Virus record (IMG/VR): IMGVR_UViG_2617270973_000013
Location: 1-7,648 of that record
Origin: a virus
Lineage: Duplodnaviria; Heunggongvirae; Uroviricota; Caudoviricetes
DNA length: 7,648 nucleotides
Strand: one strand, 5' to 3'
Below are positions 1 to 7,648 of this stretch, in pieces. The number at the start of each line of letters is the position of its first letter. The first letter of the stretch is position 1. A program made the position numbers and the translations under genes. The notes beneath the pieces were generated by a model. The model had not been told where the DNA came from. It ran no database searches and saw only the letters and a list, made by a program, of their open reading frames with translations.

Positions 1-801
1 TATGTTTCTGATGCGATGAAAGTGGTGGATTCTGCCGTATCGGATGCCGCCAGGCTGTTGCAGGGGGATATCTCGGTACTTCTGCCGCCACCATCGTCAG
101 GCAAAAATCTCGTTGAGCAGGTGCAGAAAATGTGGCGTACCGGGAAACGCCTTTATGGTAACGCCAGCGACCTGGTCACCATGATCAAAACGCTTTCCGG
201 TGTCAGCCTCGGCAGCGATCTGCAACCGCGCGGCGTCTGGAAAACGGACAGTAAAACCACCGCCACGGCGACGCAGCAGCGTAATGTGGTTGCCAGCACC
301 CTTCGTACGACCGCAATCAGCGAAGCGGCGTATGCCGTCACCCGATTGCCTGCGCCAACAACTTCCGCGGTGATGCAGAATTCCGCAGTGGGGCAGGCAA
401 CAACACCTGCGCAGAGCACTGGCTGGCCTTCCGTCACGCATCCGGCACTGAACAATGCACCGGCGGTGAAAAACACGGTTGACCTGCCGACGTGGGAAGA
501 ACTGACTGACATTCGCGACACACTGAATACGGCAATTGATAAGGAGTTGTCCCGTACAACCAGTGATGCGCTGTTTCTGGCGCTGCGCCGGGTGAAAGCA
601 GATCTGAATGCGGATATCAACACGCGCCTTGAACAGTCTGCACGGATCATTCAGCGCACACCGGATGAGGTTTTACCCGCGCTGGTGCTGGCGGCGACCT
701 GGTTTGATAACGCGGCGCGTGACGCGGACATTATCCGGCGTAATGCCATTACGCATCCCGGCTTTGTGCCGGTGATCCCTCTGAAGGTGCCAGTGCAATG
801 A
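1..801 (+). CDS. Tail protein, 5'-truncated at window edge; likely Mu gp43 (N, DNA-circulation)-like C-terminal portion
   Basis: The frame is open from position 1 with no stop, and there is no Shine-Dalgarno before the ATG at 16, so the gene probably starts upstream of the window. Its stop TGA (799-801) overlaps the next gene's ATG (798-800) as ATGA. Identity is inferred from position immediately upstream of a gp44/P-like hub gene, as in Mu; the Ala/Thr/Ser-rich sequence was not recognised directly. Confidence 0.5.
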   Translation, partial: YVSDAMKVVDSAVSDAARLLQGDISVLLPPPSSGKNLVEQVQKMWRTGKRLYGNASDLVTMIKTLSGVSLGSDLQPRGVWKTDSKTTATATQQRNVVASTLRTTAISEAAYAVTRLPAPTTSAVMQNSAVGQATTPAQSTGWPSVTHPALNNAPAVKNTVDLPTWEELTDIRDTLNTAIDKELSRTTSDALFLALRRVKADLNADINTRLEQSARIIQRTPDEVLPALVLAATWFDNAARDADIIRRNAITHPGFVPVIPLKVPVQ

Positions 802-1877
802 ACGACAATGTCACGCTACGGGTAAATGGCCGGGAGTGGAATGGCTGGACATCGGTGCGCATCGGTGCCGGTATTGAACGGCTGGCGCGGGATTTCAGTG
901 TGGAGATCACCCGCCAGTGGCCGGGAGATGAGGGTATCACCACGCTTCAGCCGCGCATTAAAAACGGTTCAAAAGTGGAAGTGCTGATTGGTGATGAGCT
1001 GGTGATCACCGGCTGGGTGGAGGCGACTCCCGTTCGTTACGATGCCCGTTCGGTCAGCACCGGTATTGCCGGACGTAGTCTGACGGCTGACCTGATTGAC
1101 TGTGCAGCCGAACCGACACAGTTTAACGGACGCTCGCTGGTGCAGATTGCGCAGGCGCTTGCTGCGCCTTTCGGCATTGAGGTGGTGAACAGCGGTGCGC
1201 CGTCGGGTGTTATTCCTGATGTTCAGCCTGATCACGGTGAAACGGTGATTGAGGTAATCAACAAAATACTCGGTCAGCAGCAGGCACTGGCTTACGACGA
1301 CCCGCACGGCAGGCTGGTGATTGGCGGTATTGGCTCAACGCGGGCACATACTGCGCTGGTACTCGGGGAAAACATCCTTTCCTGCGATACGGAGAAGAGT
1401 ATCCGGGAGCGATTTTCTGTTTACCAGGTGGCGGGGCAGCGTGCCGGAAACGACGATGATTTCGGTGAGACCACCACCACCGCGCTGCGGGCCCGCACAG
1501 AGGACGCATTTATTGCCCGTTACCGTCCGATGTATATCAGGCAGACAGGGCAGGCCACGGGGGCAGGCTGTATTGCGCGTGCTGACTTTGAAGCCCGACA
1601 ACGGGCGGCGCGGACGGATGAAACCACCTATTTGGTGCAGGGCTGGCGACAGGGTAACGGTACGCTGTGGCAGCCCAACCAGCGGGTGATTGTCTTCGAT
1701 CCGGTCTGTGGTTTCGACAATACCGAACTGCTTGTCTCGGAAGTCACGTTCACTCAGGACCAGAACGGCACCATGACGGAAATCCGTGTCGGCCCACCTG
1801 ATGCTTATCTGCCTGAACCCGAAGCCCCCGGCGCGCGGAAAAAGAAAAAAGCCAGAGTGCAGGAGGACCCGTTCTGA
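798..1877 (+). CDS. Baseplate hub / tail protein, Mu gp44 (P) / P2 gpD-like
   Basis: 359-aa ORF, close to the size I recall for Mu gp44, in the expected position. Start overlaps the upstream stop (ATGA) and the stop overlaps the next start (TGATG at 1875-1879). The C-terminus carries a Lys-rich tail (KKKKAR). Confidence 0.7.
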   Translation: MNDNVTLRVNGREWNGWTSVRIGAGIERLARDFSVEITRQWPGDEGITTLQPRIKNGSKVEVLIGDELVITGWVEATPVRYDARSVSTGIAGRSLTADLIDCAAEPTQFNGRSLVQIAQALAAPFGIEVVNSGAPSGVIPDVQPDHGETVIEVINKILGQQQALAYDDPHGRLVIGGIGSTRAHTALVLGENILSCDTEKSIRERFSVYQVAGQRAGNDDDFGETTTTALRARTEDAFIARYRPMYIRQTGQATGAGCIARADFEARQRAARTDETTYLVQGWRQGNGTLWQPNQRVIVFDPVCGFDNTELLVSEVTFTQDQNGTMTEIRVGPPDAYLPEPEAPGARKKKKARVQEDPF

Positions 1878-2425
1878 TGAGGACGATTGAAGCCATGCAG
1901 CGACAACTCCTCGGCCTGATTGGGCGGGCAGTGGTGAAAAGCATCAGTGCCGCCACGAAATGTCAGACCGTGGATGTGTCCCTGATTGCCGGTGAACCCA
2001 AAGCCGGGGTTGAACATCTTGAACCCTACGGTTTTACCGCAAGGGCAAACAGCGGTGCGGAAGCGGTGGTGTTGTTTCCGGATGGTGACCGTTCTCATGC
2101 GGTGGTTGTTACGGTGTCGGACCGGCGCTACCGCCTGAAAGGGCTGCAGACGGGTGAGGTGGCTGTCTATGACGATCAGGGGCAGTCCGTGACGCTGGCC
2201 CGGGAGGGGATCGTGGTGGACGGTGCAGGTAAAACGATCACGTTTCGCAATGCGCCTAAGGCACGTTTTGAAATGGACCTGGAAGTGACCGGACAGGTGA
2301 AAGACCTGTGCGACTCCACCGGCACCACCATGTCAGCGATGCGGCTTGCCTATAACGGGCATCGTCACAGAGAGAACGGTCAGGGCAGTAACACCGACAA
2401 ACCTGATAAAGCGATGGAGGCATGA
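1877..2425 (+). CDS. Baseplate assembly protein V-like (Mu gp45-like spike/centrepiece)
   Basis: 182-aa ORF in the expected size and order for a gpV/gp45-like protein. Translationally coupled on both sides (TGATG upstream; ATGATG at 2422-2427 downstream). Confidence 0.65.
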   Translation: MRTIEAMQRQLLGLIGRAVVKSISAATKCQTVDVSLIAGEPKAGVEHLEPYGFTARANSGAEAVVLFPDGDRSHAVVVTVSDRRYRLKGLQTGEVAVYDDQGQSVTLAREGIVVDGAGKTITFRNAPKARFEMDLEVTGQVKDLCDSTGTTMSAMRLAYNGHRHRENGQGSNTDKPDKAMEA

Positions 2426-2850
2426 TGGAACTGTGGCTGACGGTGAACGGTAAACGCACCTGCGCCAGCGCACAACTGGATCCGCTGACCCGCGCCGTGG
2501 TGATTTCCCTGTTTACCTGGCGGCGGGCGGAGCCTGATGACAACGCCGACGTCCCGATGGGATGGTGGGGGGATACCTGGCCTGCGGTACAGAATGACCG
2601 TTACGGCTCCCGACTGTGGCTGCTTCAGCGCAGCAAACTGACCAATCAGCTGGTGCAGACGGTAAGGGGGTATATCCGCGAATGCCTGCAATGGATGATT
2701 GATGACGGCGTGGTGTCCCGTATTGATCTGGATATCCGCCGCACCGGGATTAATGAACTGGGTAACAGTATCACTCTCTGGCGTCGTGACGGACCGGTAA
2801 TGATTTCTTTTGATGATCTGTGGAGTGCGATAACGCATGGCGGACAGTGA
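2422..2850 (+). CDS. Phage GP46-family baseplate protein (Mu gp46 / P2 gpW-like)
   Basis: 142-aa ORF containing a WWGD motif of the kind I associate with the GP46 family. It overlaps the next gene by 14 bp. Confidence 0.65.
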   Translation: MMELWLTVNGKRTCASAQLDPLTRAVVISLFTWRRAEPDDNADVPMGWWGDTWPAVQNDRYGSRLWLLQRSKLTNQLVQTVRGYIRECLQWMIDDGVVSRIDLDIRRTGINELGNSITLWRRDGPVMISFDDLWSAITHGGQ

Positions 2851-3895
2851 ATTTCAGCGCCCGACGCTGGCAGAAAATATCAGTATGCTCCGTAACGATT
2901 TATTCGCCAGGCTGGACGTCAGCGACACGCTCCGGCGCATGGATGAAGACGTGCGGGCAAAGGTGTATGCGGCGGCGCTGCATACGGTTTACGGGTACAT
3001 CGATTATCTGGCAATGAATATGCTGCCTGACCTGTGCGATGAGTCCTGGCTGGCGCGACATGCTGCGATGAAACGGTGTCCGCGCAAGGGGGCCACGGCT
3101 GCCAGCGGGTATATGCGCTGGGAAGGTGTCAGCGATGGCCTGAAGGTGACCGCCGGGAGTGTTATTCAGCGCGATGACCTGGTTCAGTACACGGCAACTG
3201 CCGATGCAACCAGCTCCGGTGGTGTCCTGCGCGTGCCGATCGCCTGCTCAAGTGCAGGTGCGGTCGGTAACGCTGACGACGGTACGGCATTAATCCTGGT
3301 CACGCCGGTGAATGGTCTGCCGTCTTCCGGTGTGGCTGACACCCTTACAGGCGGATTTGATACTGAAGAGCTGGAAACGTGGCGCGCCCGCGTCATTGAG
3401 CGGTATTACTGGACGCCTCAGGGCGGGGCTGACGGGGACTATGTCGTCTGGGCTAAAGAAGTGCCCGGCATTACCCGCGCATGGACATACCGTCACTGGA
3501 TGGGAACGGGAACTGTCGGTGTGATGATTGCCAGCAGTGACCTGATTAATCCCATTCCGGAAGAATCAACGGAAACGGCAGCAAGACAACATATCGTGCC
3601 ACTGGCCCCGGTGGCAGGCTCTGATTTGTATGTATTCAGGCCGGTGGCACATACGGTGGATTTTCATATCCGCGTGACGCCGGACACACCAGAAATACGA
3701 GCCGCCATCACCGCGGAGTTGCGTTCGTTTCTTCTGCGTGATGGTTATCCGCAGGGAGAACTGAAGGTATCGCGTATCAGTGAGGCGATTTCCGGTGCGA
3801 ACGGGGAATATAGCCATCAGTTGCTTGCACCGGCAGACAATATCTCCATTGCGAAAAATGAACTGGCGGTTCTGGGGACGATTTCATGGACGTGA
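2837..3895 (+). CDS. Baseplate J-like protein (Mu gp47-like wedge subunit)
   Basis: 352-aa ORF, matching the size and position expected for a Baseplate_J protein between gp46 and gp48. It overlaps the next gene by 10 bp (ATG 3886, stop 3893-3895). Confidence 0.7.
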
Positions 3896-4470
3896 CAAAC
3901 GATGATTACATCCGTCTGTTGTCGGCACTGTTGCCACCCGGTCCGGCGTGGTCAGCCAGAGATCCGGCGATTGCCGGTGCGGCACCGTCATTAACCCGCG
4001 TTCATCAGCGTGCGGATGCCCTGATGCGGGAGCTGGATCCGCGCACCACCACTGAACTGATAAACCGCTGGGAGCGTCTGTGCGGTCTGCCGGATGAATG
4101 TATTCCGGCGGGAACGCAGACTCTTCGCCAGCGTCAGCAACGGCTGGATGCGAAGGTTAATCTGGCGGGCGGCATCAATGAGGATTTTTACCTTGCACAG
4201 CTTGCTGCCCTGGGCAGACCAGACGCTACTATCACGCGATACGATAAAAGCACGTTCACCTGCTCATCGGCCTGTACTGACGCAGTGAATGCGTCGGAAT
4301 GGCGGTATTACTGGCAGGTCAACATGCCAGCCGCCACCAACACCACCTGGATGACATGTGGCGATCCCTGTGATTCCGCACTGCGTATCTGGGGCGACAC
4401 CGTTGTCGAGTGCGTGCTTAACAAACTCTGCCCGTCGCATACCTACGTAATTTTTAAATATCCGGAGTAA
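3886..4470 (+). CDS. Mu gp48 / P2 gpI-like tail protein (DUF2313, YmfQ-like)
   Basis: 194-aa ORF directly upstream of the tail fibre, the length and position I recall for YmfQ/gp48-family proteins. Stop TAA at 4468-4470 is followed 3 bp later by the stf ATG, with GGAG at 4464-4467. Confidence 0.65.
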
Positions 4471-4473
4471 TCC

Positions 4474-5238
4474 ATGCATCGTATAGACACGAAAACCGCG
4501 CAGAAGGATAAGTTCGGCGCGGGTAAGAACGGTTTTACCCGTGGTAACCCCCAGACCGGCACACCTGCCACCGATCTGGATGATGACTACTTTGACATGT
4601 TGCAGGAAGAACTCTGCAGCGTGGTGGAGGCATCCGGTGCCAGCCTGGAGAAGGGGCGGCATGACCAGCTGCTTACCGCGCTTCGTGCGCTGCTGTTAAG
4701 CCGCAAGAATCCGTTTGGTGATATCAAATCGGATGGCACGGTGAAAACGGCTCTCGAAAACCTTGGTTTGGGAGAAGGTGCTCCAGCTATTGGCGTTCCG
4801 TTCTTCTGGCCGTCCGCCGCAATGCCAGATACCGTAATCGAAAGCTGGTCCGGCATGGTGTTTTTGAAGTTCAACGGCGCGAAATTCTCTGCCACTGATT
4901 ACCCTGTGCTGGCGAAAGTGTTTCCTTCGCTGGTATTACCTGAAGCCCGCGGTGATTTCATTCGTATCTGGGATGATGGTCGTGGTGTAGATAGTGGACG
5001 TGGATTACTTAGTACGCAGTCTGACCTGATGAAACAATTTACTTTGCAATACTACGGTCCTTCTGCTGGTACTGGAACAAGAACGGTTTTCGCCCTCCAG
5101 AGTAATGCGAACGGCATATATACGAGTGGTATTAGTCAGAATGATGGTAGTGGCACCGCTGCGGCTTTTAATGTACCAGGCGGCACCGAAACACGCCCAC
5201 GTAACATTGCATTCAACTTTTTAGTAAGGGCTAAATAA
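4474..5238 (+). CDS. Tail fibre protein (constant N-terminus Sc, residues 1-~97, fused to variable C-terminus Sv in the present orientation)
   Basis: 254-aa ORF. The N-terminus has a [16 protein letters not shown] motif resembling Mu S / P2 H N-termini (from memory). The C-terminal part ([10 protein letters not shown]...[15 protein letters not shown]) resembles a phage tail-collar / receptor-binding domain. The crossover site sits in-frame at codons 94-101 (LENLGLGE). Stop TAA 5236-5238 overlaps the tfa ATG (TAATG). Confidence 0.8.
4751..4776. repeat. Left crossover site (Hin/Gin-type, 12-2-12): CTCTCGAAAACC-TT-GGTTTGGGAGAA
   Basis: Both half-sites fit the TTnTCnnAAACC pattern recalled for hix/gix/cix sites. 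A perfect 14-bp inverted copy of 4763-4776 occurs at 6608-6621. The site lies inside the stf coding sequence. Confidence 0.8.
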
Positions 5239-5831
5239 TGAAACCTGTTTTTGATAAAAATGGGCTGGCTACAGTGCCGGGTGATATGCGTTGTTTTTAT
5301 TATGATGCAGTAACGTCTGAATATACTGGCTGGTCTGATGAATATATTAATACTGGTGTAAGTATGCCCGCCTGTTCCACTGGTATTGACCCGGGCGAAT
5401 ACATTCCGGGGAAAGTGGCAGTATTTACGGGTAAGGGATGGAGCCATGAAGAAGACCACCGCAATGAGACTGCTTACTCAATCGAAAATGGCGCAGCTGT
5501 TACAGTGGATTATATCGGTGCCATCAAAGACGGTTATGTCACGCTTTCACCGTTAACGCCATACGATAAATGGGATGGTGAGAAATGGGTGACAGATACT
5601 GAGGCACAGCATAGTGCCGCAGTAGACGCGGCAGAAGCACAGCGCCAGTCGCTGATTGATGCTGCAATGGCTTCCATCAGTCTGATTCAACTGAAATTGC
5701 AGGCCGGGCGGAAGCTGACGCAGGCAGAAACAACCCGACTTAACGCCGTGCTGGATTACATTGACGCGGTGACGGCAACAGATACCAGCACCGCGCCGGA
5801 TATCATCTGGCCTGAACAGCCGGAGGCGTAG
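5238..5831 (+). CDS. Tail fibre assembly chaperone (Tfa / Mu U-like)
   Basis: 197-aa ORF coupled to stf. The C-terminus (LDYIDAVTATDTSTAPDIIWPEQP) carries the conserved tail-fibre-assembly motif and an N-terminal FYYD motif. Confidence 0.8.
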   Translation: MKPVFDKNGLATVPGDMRCFYYDAVTSEYTGWSDEYINTGVSMPACSTGIDPGEYIPGKVAVFTGKGWSHEEDHRNETAYSIENGAAVTVDYIGAIKDGYVTLSPLTPYDKWDGEKWVTDTEAQHSAAVDAAEAQRQSLIDAAMASISLIQLKLQAGRKLTQAETTRLNAVLDYIDAVTATDTSTAPDIIWPEQPEA

Positions 5832-6243
5832 GCCATTCAATATCTGGAGCACTGGAAATATCAACCATTTCCAGTGCGTCCAGATAATCAAGCCATGAAT
5901 TATATTGCGCCAGTTCCTCACCTTTCAGACGACCAATAGCAGCCTTTCCTGGCCACTGCTTACTGTTAATATATTCATTAACTCGATTTATGAGTGCCTG
6001 TTTTTTTCGTTCCGCTTCTGACAGTTGTTCTTCATGAGTTAGCGGCGGTACGTCATCCCATGCAGGATAGCCATCATCACCCGCAACTCTCACCTTCCCT
6101 GGAGGTGGGGACAGGTACTTAATAAATATATCCTCATCAACTTCAACTCCATTATGAGGCCATAACCCAGACTCCTTATACTGACTTTCCAGAGTAAATG
6201 GGTAAAACATATTAGTTTTAGCATCGTAAAGATATTTACTCAT
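5803..6243 (-). CDS. Alternative tail fibre assembly chaperone (Tfa' / U'-like) inside the invertible segment
   Basis: Begins MSKYLYDAKTNMFYPF, a typical Tfa N-terminus, and ends with the conserved LDYLDALEMVDISSAPDIEWPTPP motif. Start ATG at 6243-6241 is preceded by AGGAAG and lies 1 nt after the Sv' stop (TAA at 6247-6245). The 24 extra upstream codons in the ORF track (to 6315) overlap the end of Sv' and are judged not to be the real start. Confidence 0.8.
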   Translation of the reverse strand: MSKYLYDAKTNMFYPFTLESQYKESGLWPHNGVEVDEDIFIKYLSPPPGKVRVAGDDGYPAWDDVPPLTHEEQLSEAERKKQALINRVNEYINSKQWPGKAAIGRLKGEELAQYNSWLDYLDALEMVDISSAPDIEWPTPPAVQAR

Positions 6244-6244
6244 T

Positions 6245-6621
6245 TTATCTTCCTGTAGCAAACCAGCGGCAACCAGCGACAGTTGGAACATTGAAGGATG
6301 GATTTCCTTTATCAAGAGATCCCAGGTTCTCTGCTATGACATTTGAGTTAGTCAATTTATAGAATTGCCATACTGACATTTTCCCTGCCACAGGAGCCTG
6401 GTCATGTTCATTAATAGAAATGACGGCTGTCGGAAATGGGATAGGAAAATTAATCAAAACTTCATTTGTTGTGGCCCCAGTTAGCCCCCATTGTTCAATA
6501 TAACCATCCGGGCTTCGCCTCCATCCCGTCGTTGTATCTCCCCCACACTCCCACGCTGACATATCAGGAATTTGGTTTTGCCCGTTACCCACATCCCGTT
6601 TTGCCGCTTCTCCCAAACCAA
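6245..6621 (-). CDS. Alternative tail fibre C-terminal cassette (Sv'), start-less; expressed only as an in-frame fusion to Sc after inversion
   Basis: - strand ORF with no ATG; the track's initial 'M' is a TTG at 6616-6614. Directly stitching the sequence after inversion at the crossover core gives ...ENLGLGE-AAKRDVGNGQ..., in frame with stf codons 1-98. It is immediately followed by tfa' in the stf-tfa arrangement. Confidence 0.75.
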
Positions 6622-6633
6622 CCTTTCAAATAT
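6608..6633. repeat. Right crossover site: TTCTCCCAAACC-AA-CCTTTCAAATAT (inner half canonical, outer half degenerate)
   Basis: Positions 6608-6621 are the exact reverse complement of 4763-4776. The core AA is the complement of the left core TT, as required for inversion. The site ends 59 bp upstream of the invertase ATG. Confidence 0.8.
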
Positions 6634-6660
6634 TTTTCTGAATCAGGTGATATTTCGCCT

Positions 6661-6687
6661 CTTCTCCTGTTTTTACAACAGGAGAAG
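6661..6687 (+). promoter_or_regulatory. Perfect 10-bp stem / 7-nt loop hairpin (CTTCTCCTGT-ttttaca-ACAGGAGAAG) whose 3' arm contains the invertase Shine-Dalgarno
   Basis: Inverted repeat read directly from the sequence. No U-tract follows on either strand, so it is not a canonical intrinsic terminator. It could equally be a palindromic protein-binding site. Confidence 0.4.
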
Positions 6688-6692
6688 CACTC

Positions 6693-7256
6693 ATGATTTA
6701 CGGGTATGTACGTGTATCAACAAATCATCAGGATACAGAGTTGCAACGTCTTGCACTTGAGTCAGTTGGCTGTGAGCGAATTTATGAAGAATATGCCAGT
6801 GGCAGAACAGCTAATCGCCCTGTGTTAAAGGAATTAATTACGGTGATGAAAAGTGGAGATGAGTTGATTGTCTGGAAGTTAGATCGGATAGGGAGAAATG
6901 TGCTGCATGCGCTATTGATGTTTCAAAATCTGCACGAAAAAGGTGTTAATTTTCGGAGTATTACAGATGGCGTAGACCTGAAAACAGCAAGTGGTCGCTA
7001 TAATTTCCGTAATATTCTTTCTGCTGCGCAGTATGAATCTGATTTGAATAGCGAGCGAACTTTAGCTGGTTTGGCTATTGCCAGATCCAAAGGCCGGATT
7101 GGTGGGCGTAGACCGAAGTTTAGCGACGAGCAGTGGCAACAGATGGGAGCGCTCATAGCGGCAGGGAAATCACGGCGTTATGTTGCACGTATCTATAACG
7201 TTGGGCTATCAACCCTATATAAACGATTTCCTGTTACTGGCATTCAAACGAAATAA
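6693..7256 (+). CDS. Serine recombinase, DNA invertase of the Hin/Gin/Cin/Pin family
   Basis: 187-aa ORF with N-terminal YGYVRVSTNHQDTELQ (catalytic Ser in the YVRVST motif), VWKLDRIGRN, and C-terminal GRIGGRRPK and helix-turn-helix-like region (RRYVARIYNVGLSTLYKR). Strong SD GGAG at 6681-6684, 8 nt before the ATG. It lies directly outside the right crossover site. Confidence 0.9.
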   Translation: MIYGYVRVSTNHQDTELQRLALESVGCERIYEEYASGRTANRPVLKELITVMKSGDELIVWKLDRIGRNVLHALLMFQNLHEKGVNFRSITDGVDLKTASGRYNFRNILSAAQYESDLNSERTLAGLAIARSKGRIGGRRPKFSDEQWQQMGALIAAGKSRRYVARIYNVGLSTLYKRFPVTGIQTK

Positions 7257-7399
7257 TTTAAAAGCAATTTAAAGAGTTATTTGTCTAATGTTGGAAGCCG
7301 CAGCCACGTCGTATGCAAGAACGTGCTGCGGCTGGCTGGCGAACTTTCGATAGTGCGAGTATTGAATGATTTCCAGCCGTTACCGATTTTACGTGTTAA

Positions 7400-7648
7400 T
7401 TAGTGAACAAACCACTCGTCAGCAGATTCCCAGGTATCTTTCAGAGTCTCCTGAACAAAAGTTTTTGCAGAATCCTTATCTGCGGTGCGTGTAACAGAAA
7501 GGCCATCGTTGCTGGTGGCTTTTACGATCACCTCTACATCGTCATAACGTTTACTGATGCGTCGGGTTAATTCTTCCTTTAACGCATCCACAGCACCGGT
7601 TGGCATTTTAGTCATTTTTTCTTTGGCTATGCAGATTTCAATACGCAT
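7400..7648 (-). CDS. DinI-family protein (DNA-damage-inducible protein I-like)
   Basis: 82-aa ORF; the N-terminus MRIEICIAK and C-terminus [17 protein letters not shown] closely resemble E. coli DinI as I recall it. The ATG lies exactly at the window end (7648-7646), so its promoter and any LexA box are outside the window. Confidence 0.7.

Follow-up and report, generated by a model that had tools for sequence, protein, structure and literature searches.

Non-homologous tail-fibre tips paired in a probable invertible P-segment element of an SfV-like prophage

The P segment of the Escherichia coli K-12 prophage e14 is an element of 1797 bp whose inversion by PinE and PinQ has been measured and in which a gp53-like domain was noted (Kirigo et al. 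2025, PMC12529663); among 562 E. coli genomes, it was inverted in 33% (PMC12529663). The G segment of phage Mu (S/U/U'/S', with the invertase Gin) is organized alike: the constant N-terminus of the fibre is encoded outside the segment, two alternative C-termini, each with a Tfa gene behind it, converge within it, and a serine invertase adjoins. The DNA analyzed here (the window) is a whole stretch of 7,648 nucleotides, positions 1 to 7,648 of the IMG/VR virus record IMGVR_UViG_2617270973_000013. Its tail-fibre locus represents an allelic form of the e14 P segment and a relative of the Mu G segment, that is, an already known system. The names Sv and Sv' that we use for the two variable tips are borrowed from Mu as an analogy; the locus itself belongs to the e14 P-segment family.

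In e14, the gene order is the same (ymfQ-stfP-tfaP-tfaE-stfE-pinE), with a Pin-type invertase adjacent to the segment. The e14 YmfQ is 97% identical to the window homologue, residues 1-101 of StfP differ from the constant fibre part of the window (Sc) by one substitution, and the two loci share the crossover core TTGGTTTGGGAGAAGG as well as a 29-nt overlap of their convergent tfa genes. The pairing is also that of the window, since in e14 the gp53-like tip (StfP, Gp53-like_C) has a short Tfa as its partner and the collar-type tip (StfE, Collar) has a long one. However, the tip alleles differ, with about 21% identity in the gp53-like domain and about 18% in the distal collar-type part, and the segment of the K-12 reference stands in the orientation opposite to that of the window. 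Moreover, the window module lies in an apparently complete SfV-like tail operon, whereas e14 is a decayed, cryptic prophage.

The left part of the window carries baseplate and tail genes of the Mu type, and Mu N, P, Q, V, W, and R/YmfQ all have homologues there, between 16 and 4470. Shigella phages SfV, SfI, SfII, and SfIV match bases 1-4777 at 97.4-97.8% identity, and this similarity ends at base 4777 in each phage; Sc is 97.8% identical to the four phages exactly up to that base. From about position 4900 on, the G+C content drops from 57-60% to 42-45%. The features of the locus are as follows.

4474-5238, plus strand: tail-fibre gene S, an ORF of 254 aa that a 26-bp crossover site divides at codon 101/102.
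4474-4776, plus strand: Sc, the constant fibre part (codons 1-101 of the ORF), outside the invertible segment.
4753-4778, plus strand: left 26-bp crossover site, CTCGAAAACC TT GGTTTGGGAGAAGG; it lies within the fibre ORF and codes for ...ENLGLGE(101).
4777-5238, plus strand: Sv, the 153-aa tip now fused to Sc; its first residue, 102, starts at 4777.
5238-5831, plus strand: U, a long, TfaE-like tail-fibre assembly protein of 197 aa, partner of Sv (Pfam Caudo_TAP, 4.8e-28).
5803-6243, minus strand: U', a short, TfaP-like tail-fibre assembly protein of 146 aa, partner of Sv' (Pfam Caudo_TAP, 2.7e-34).
6245-6607, minus strand: Sv', the 120-aa alternative tip, currently an orphan.
6606-6631, minus strand: right 26-bp crossover site, ATTTGAAAGG TT GGTTTGGGAGAAGC as read on this strand.
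6693-7256, plus strand: serine DNA invertase of the Gin/Pin/Hin/Cin family, 187 aa (Pfam Resolvase, 4.4e-36; HTH_7, 7.4e-12).
7400-7648, minus strand: DinI-family gene.

The gene layout and the Caudo_TAP matches show that a separate tail-fibre assembly gene lies behind each tip gene and that the two cassettes converge, the 3' ends of U and U' lying within the 29-nt overlap. In the orientation of the window, Sv' is the end of a convergent open frame on the minus strand (6245-6616) that lacks a proper start. The NCBIfam search gave no family for the fibre, the tips, or the chaperones, and its recombinase matches to the invertase are all below threshold. Databases often mislabel the 254-aa fibre as "integrase."

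The segment boundaries are marked by a 20-nt inverted repeat (4758-4777 and 6607-6626, two mismatches), which is the sole such pair in the window, with zero expected by chance from 200 shuffles. The two 26-bp crossover sites that contain it are in inverted orientation, have a TT core and identical inner half-sites, and are exactly the two matches in the window, against 0 expected; in its outer half-site, the right copy departs from the left one at two adjacent positions (GG for CC). The left site contains TTGGTTTGGGAGAAGG, which is the repeat of the e14 P segment (PMC12529663). Next to the left site, we considered a 15-nt inverted repeat (4778-4792 and 5838-5852) as a third crossover site and rejected it because it does not match the crossover consensus; this repeat reflects the similar peptides GAPAIG and SAPDIE.

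The initial annotation placed Sv at residues ~102-254 from position 4777 with a collar-like motif quoted in three pieces, and had Sv' diverging directly after the crossover; coordinates and motifs were found as quoted, and the frames of the two tips have ...LGLGE in common and differ from the next codon onward, the Sv' frame on the minus strand reading LGE-AAKRDVGNGQNQIPDMSAWECGGDTTTGWRRSPDGYIEQWG... (LGE then AAKRDVGNGQNQIPDM...). Flipping positions 4765-6619 (~1.85 kb) in silico yields an uninterrupted ORF of 221 aa in which Sc continues in frame into Sv'. The reading frame of the invertase is uninterrupted and includes the catalytic-serine motif GYVRVSTNHQ; the protein has Mu Gin as its best solved relative (3UJ3, E = 4.4e-56), aligned end to end over residues 1-181; it is 55% identical to PinE of e14, while its DNA is closer to pinL of phi80. 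Taken together, bases ~4765-6619 very probably constitute a Pin/Gin-type invertible element of the e14 P-segment family that acts as a host-range switch and lies among the tail genes of an SfV-like prophage whose contractile tail is of the Mu type.

The counterpart of this arrangement is found in nature. In E. coli E4, window positions 1665-4777 align in forward direction at 97.8% and positions 4758-6621 align inverted at 98.7%, the 20-bp site being exactly where both alignments overlap; the E4 fibre is a 221-aa Sc+Sv' protein about 94% identical to our in-silico product. At least 7 complete genomes of E. coli contain the predicted inverted junction (98.5-99% over 200 nt), and at least 12 contain the junction of the window type (96.5-99%). 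Among 80 IMG/VR loci that encode relatives of Sv', 57 have enough flanking DNA, and in 21 of these 57, a collar-type convergent partner and an invertase are present, with the two orientations represented 10 versus 11 times. Both orientations thus exist in natural populations. Phage SKA5 had been a candidate for a simple inverted copy, but within the segment it has only 5189-6066 in common with the window and its tip alleles differ, so we take E. coli E4 as the true inverted counterpart. In another genome, the same cassette stands behind a 400-aa P2-type fibre, and Sv' is found fused to several other constant regions at the same LGLGE joint; these contexts indicate that the cassette is a portable module.

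From these close relatives, we infer that this particular copy would also switch. It is unlikely that the copy is instead a frozen relic that no longer inverts, owing to an altered right site or a missing enhancer, and makes the collar-type fibre only. Such a relic would be in keeping with the single state seen in the window, with the two changed positions of the right outer half-site, and with the scan for Fis sites: the strict consensus has no match in the 5' end of the invertase gene, the loose consensus matches at 6802/6805 and 6858, a spacing of 53-56 bp versus the canonical 48 bp, and no convincing pair at canonical spacing was found there. However, the two sites agree in their inner half-sites and TT core, the outer half-sites of e14 are degenerate too, the invertase keeps its full reading frame, catalytic motif, and end-to-end alignment with Gin, and near-identical segments are seen in both orientations across many genomes and viral contigs.

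By comparing the two tips, we found no significant similarity at the sequence, profile, or fold level, and the earlier proposal that Sv and Sv' are unrelated is borne out. In BLASTP, Sv (153 aa) matches Sv' (120 aa) at best over 8 residues, with E = 0.19; their Smith-Waterman alignment scores 30, whereas shuffles average 28.6 +/- 4.5 (z = 0.3) and 351 of 1000 attain that score. With tip-only alignments, hhalign gives a probability of 0.24% over 8 columns, whereas, as an internal control, the untrimmed alignments are detected as related through the shared constant part only, which ends in NLGLGE. We also considered the 8-residue match as a relic of homology, but its E values are 0.19-0.25 (BLASTP and hhalign) and the DNA agrees at about half of the positions by eye, and we attribute it to chance. 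The absence of similarity in sequences and profiles is solid, though the tip profiles are shallow (Neff 1.6-3.7). At the level of structure, the match lists of Sv and Sv' do not overlap, and the two tips have different folds, which goes beyond mere divergence; they are non-homologous.

The alternative would be that Sv and Sv' are very divergent homologues with one fold, beyond detection by sequence, as in some other invertible segments. Sv and Sv' of Mu are indeed detectably related (z = 11.9, mainly in the last ~60 residues), both tips are gp53-like in three other invertible segments (L034, L022, and L038), the profiles are shallow as noted, and 58% of the Sv model is of low confidence. Nevertheless, this possibility is already largely refuted, the fold-level comparison essentially excluding it.

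Sv is a tip of the T4 gp37/gp12 collar type. Its collar is divergent and its middle shows no conservation, while the C-terminal strand is conserved; Sv resembles solved collar-type members in sequence and fold, including the returning C-terminal strand. Compared with T4 gp37/gp12 (2XGF, 5LYE), the collar of Sv is divergent and the stretch from collar to last strand is only ~90 aa long. T4 fibres have gp38/gp57A as helpers, whereas the helper of Sv is a Tfa-type chaperone. Against the Pfam collar profile PF07484, Sv scores 15.4 bits, below the cut-off of 24, whereas the alleles of e14 and SKA5 reach 56-58 bits and clear it; the SKA5 collar-type tip, used as a query, retrieved no match below 97% identity to itself and hardly broadened the set. 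The sequence of Sv contains no histidine, and it therefore has no HxH iron-binding needle, while the e14 collar-type allele carries one HAH. In the AF2 monomer of Sv, confidence is limited to residues 1-57, which form the collar, and to the C-terminal strand; residues 58-146, presumed to be the receptor-binding middle, have pLDDT below 50, as would be expected for an intertwined trimer, and of this model we could use the collar alone.

Sv' is a lectin jellyroll like that of the R-pyocin foot and AP22 gp53. It scores above the profile threshold for Gp53-like_C (PF21882) and has the eight-strand jellyroll fold, at only 19-23% identity to the solved R-pyocin foot and AP22 gp53 structures (6CU2, 6CL6, 6CXB, 4MTM). 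Here, unlike in the pyocin fibre, the domain lacks the pyocin head and shaft and is joined to the 101-aa Sc through a 16-aa linker. The foot domain of the R-pyocin folds into a lectin jellyroll of eight strands; sugars of LPS have been proposed as its ligands, and it requires a co-expressed chaperone (PMC6363177).

The chaperones share more than had been proposed. In the pairwise comparison, U and U' are 36% identical over the C-terminal 72 aa (E = 9e-12), while their N-terminal parts give z = 2.3 and nothing convincing; the statement that they have only a C-terminal motif in common therefore holds for pairwise likeness, which is confined to the last ~72 aa, but both proteins match Pfam Caudo_TAP across about 130 profile positions and are homologous Caudo_TAP domains, not mere carriers of a motif. 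The further proposal that each chaperone is specific to its own tip stands in part. The pattern of U and U' fits the published Tfa model, in which the N-domain varies and binds the fibre while the C-domain is conserved and drives oligomerisation (PMC9608196, which cites the Mu Tfa structure). Yet the match appears to be one of class and not of allele: between the window and phage SKA5, the N-domain of the long Tfa is 98% identical, while the distal parts of the collar-type tips are only 23% identical, so that a near-identical N-domain occurs with two very different collar-type tips. Within the gp53-like class, Tfa N-domain identity and tip identity fall together across loci. As judged from these alignments, chaperone and tip matching looks looser than one-to-one and seems to operate at the level of the tip class. 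U is 63% identical to TfaE of e14, rising to 98% over the C-terminal 90 aa.

The relationship to e14 also raises the question of whether the segment mainly serves the host rather than the phage. Inversion of the e14 P segment is reported to yield StfE2, which consists of an orphan leader and the gp53-like tip and whose production reduces T2 adsorption (Kirigo et al. 2025, PMC12529663). It is very unlikely that the orphan Sv' ORF (6245-6616) is an equivalent of StfE2, namely, a short stand-alone blocker of the adsorption of other phages such as T2. The orientation of the window does leave the gp53-like tip as an orphan, and AAAGG lies 5 nt upstream of a TTG at 6616. However, the e14 leader (MPFACYFFIFINVGLGE) is absent from the window, an in-frame TGA four codons upstream of LGE leaves that TTG, inside the crossover site, as the only start, and the surrounding tail module seems complete, unlike that of the cryptic e14. 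A promoter and terminator scan of 4300-7400 gave fewer sites than shuffled sequences, and thus no evidence for an internal promoter, with none better than chance on the strand of the orphan. It accordingly seems improbable, by analogy with StfE2, that the orphan gp53-like ORF would be expressed alone in the lysogen and mask receptors against other phages; if it were, the element would have a dual use, host range in one state and defence in the other, and the pairing of non-homologous tips would have been selected for it. A host-serving role is compatible with a role in host range.

In comparison with Mu, the segment of the window is smaller, as that of Mu is about 3 kb, with an Sc of 169 aa and tips of about 320-335 aa. 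The Mu tips belong to other families (Gp34_trimer/Phage_fiber_2 and gp37_C), and their mutual relationship contrasts with the unrelated tips of the window; U and U' of Mu are close paralogues (z = 78), whereas the window chaperones are pairwise alike only in the C-terminal domain, and the Mu crossover sequence differs from that of the window. Since the Mu tips are related and other segments carry two gp53-like tips, heterologous pairing marks the e14-type cassette and is no general rule.

According to the above analysis, the host-range switch that we prefer would work through the adjacent serine invertase, which is predicted to recombine the two inverted 26-bp sites; because one of them lies inside the fibre ORF, Sc would be joined in frame to either of the two tips. 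In the orientation of the window, Sc would carry the 153-aa gp37/gp12 collar-type tip followed by the 197-aa Tfa chaperone, and in the flipped orientation, it would carry the 120-aa R-pyocin-foot/gp53-like jellyroll tip followed by the 146-aa Tfa chaperone. Only the cassette behind Sc would be read within the late tail operon, so that expression should depend on orientation. As the tips are non-homologous and have different folds, virions in the two states most likely bind different surface structures, and it is reasonable to suppose that the two orientations correspond to different putative receptors and host ranges; for the lectin-like tip, the predicted target would probably be LPS or another glycan of the cell surface.

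In all likelihood, the locus is a phase-variable host-range switch of the textbook kind, and many E. coli genomes and phage records contain copies identical or nearly identical to it. The heterologous nature of its tips is a modest and descriptive point about a known type of element, and the locus matters little beyond its correct annotation, in which the tip now fused to Sc should be named as gp37/gp12 collar-type and the silent tip as a pyocin-foot-like lectin domain.

The two convergent tail-fibre assembly (Tfa) genes of the invertible segment overlap at their 3' ends, and another gene lies just past the invertase:

5803-5831, 29-nt overlap of the 3' ends of the two convergent tail-fibre assembly genes
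7400-7648, minus strand, DinI-family gene (Pfam, 1.1e-19)

The tfaP/tfaE overlap of the E. coli K-12 prophage e14 is identical in length to that of the window, and the convergent tfa genes of phage SKA5 also overlap by 29 nt. Beyond the invertase, phage phi80 carries a DinI-type gene as well (pinL-dinL), and in SKA5 the invertase is followed by a DinI-family gene, as in the window, and then by the integrase. The same invertible cassette is attached to a 400-aa H-type fibre in a P2-like prophage of NZ_CM135829.1, a 4.83-Mb sequence labelled E. coli DH5alpha; both this prophage and the size are out of keeping with the label of a K-12 DH5alpha derivative.

Base composition changes along the window: the baseplate genes have a G+C content of 57-60%, and this falls to 42-45% across the tips, the chaperone N-terminal domains, the invertase and the DinI region (about 4900-7648), a pattern that fits a horizontally acquired cassette. 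Many public copies of the 254-aa (or 251-aa) fibre protein, including the database relatives P0005, P0013 and P0176, bear the NCBI-source name "integrase". For these relatives of the 4474-5238 product, Pfam, PDB and the gene context all indicate a tail fibre, so the name appears to be a misannotation that has been propagated.

At its upstream end (within 6607-6700, minus strand), the orphan frame of the alternative tip Sv' is shut by a TGA that lies four codons before LGE, part of the joint peptide at the crossover. Relatives (P0125, 149 aa) have a Ser codon where the window has this TGA, and their ORF begins with MSASPVV, adjoining the invertase start. The orphan leader of e14 is different, MPFACYFFIFINVGLGE, and leads into the StfE/StfE2 proteins (Kirigo et al. 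2025, PMC12529663).

By comparing the long chaperone with that of SKA5, we found 98% identity in the N-terminal, fibre-binding domain (window 5238-5560 versus SKA5 locus 7300-7629), whereas the distal tip parts that this chaperone should serve share only 23% identity. The tip may have been swapped recently, or the chaperone may tolerate different tips, and either could explain this mismatch.

The breakpoints of similarity to other phages lie at fixed positions of the window, 4777, 5189, 5550 and 6066. The match of SfV-type phages ends at the crossover (4777), the common stretch with SKA5 inside the segment is limited to 5189-6066, and that with Klebsiella phages is 5550-6066. The conserved core consists of the two Tfa C-terminal domains, and this pair could serve as a recombination platform for half-cassette swaps.
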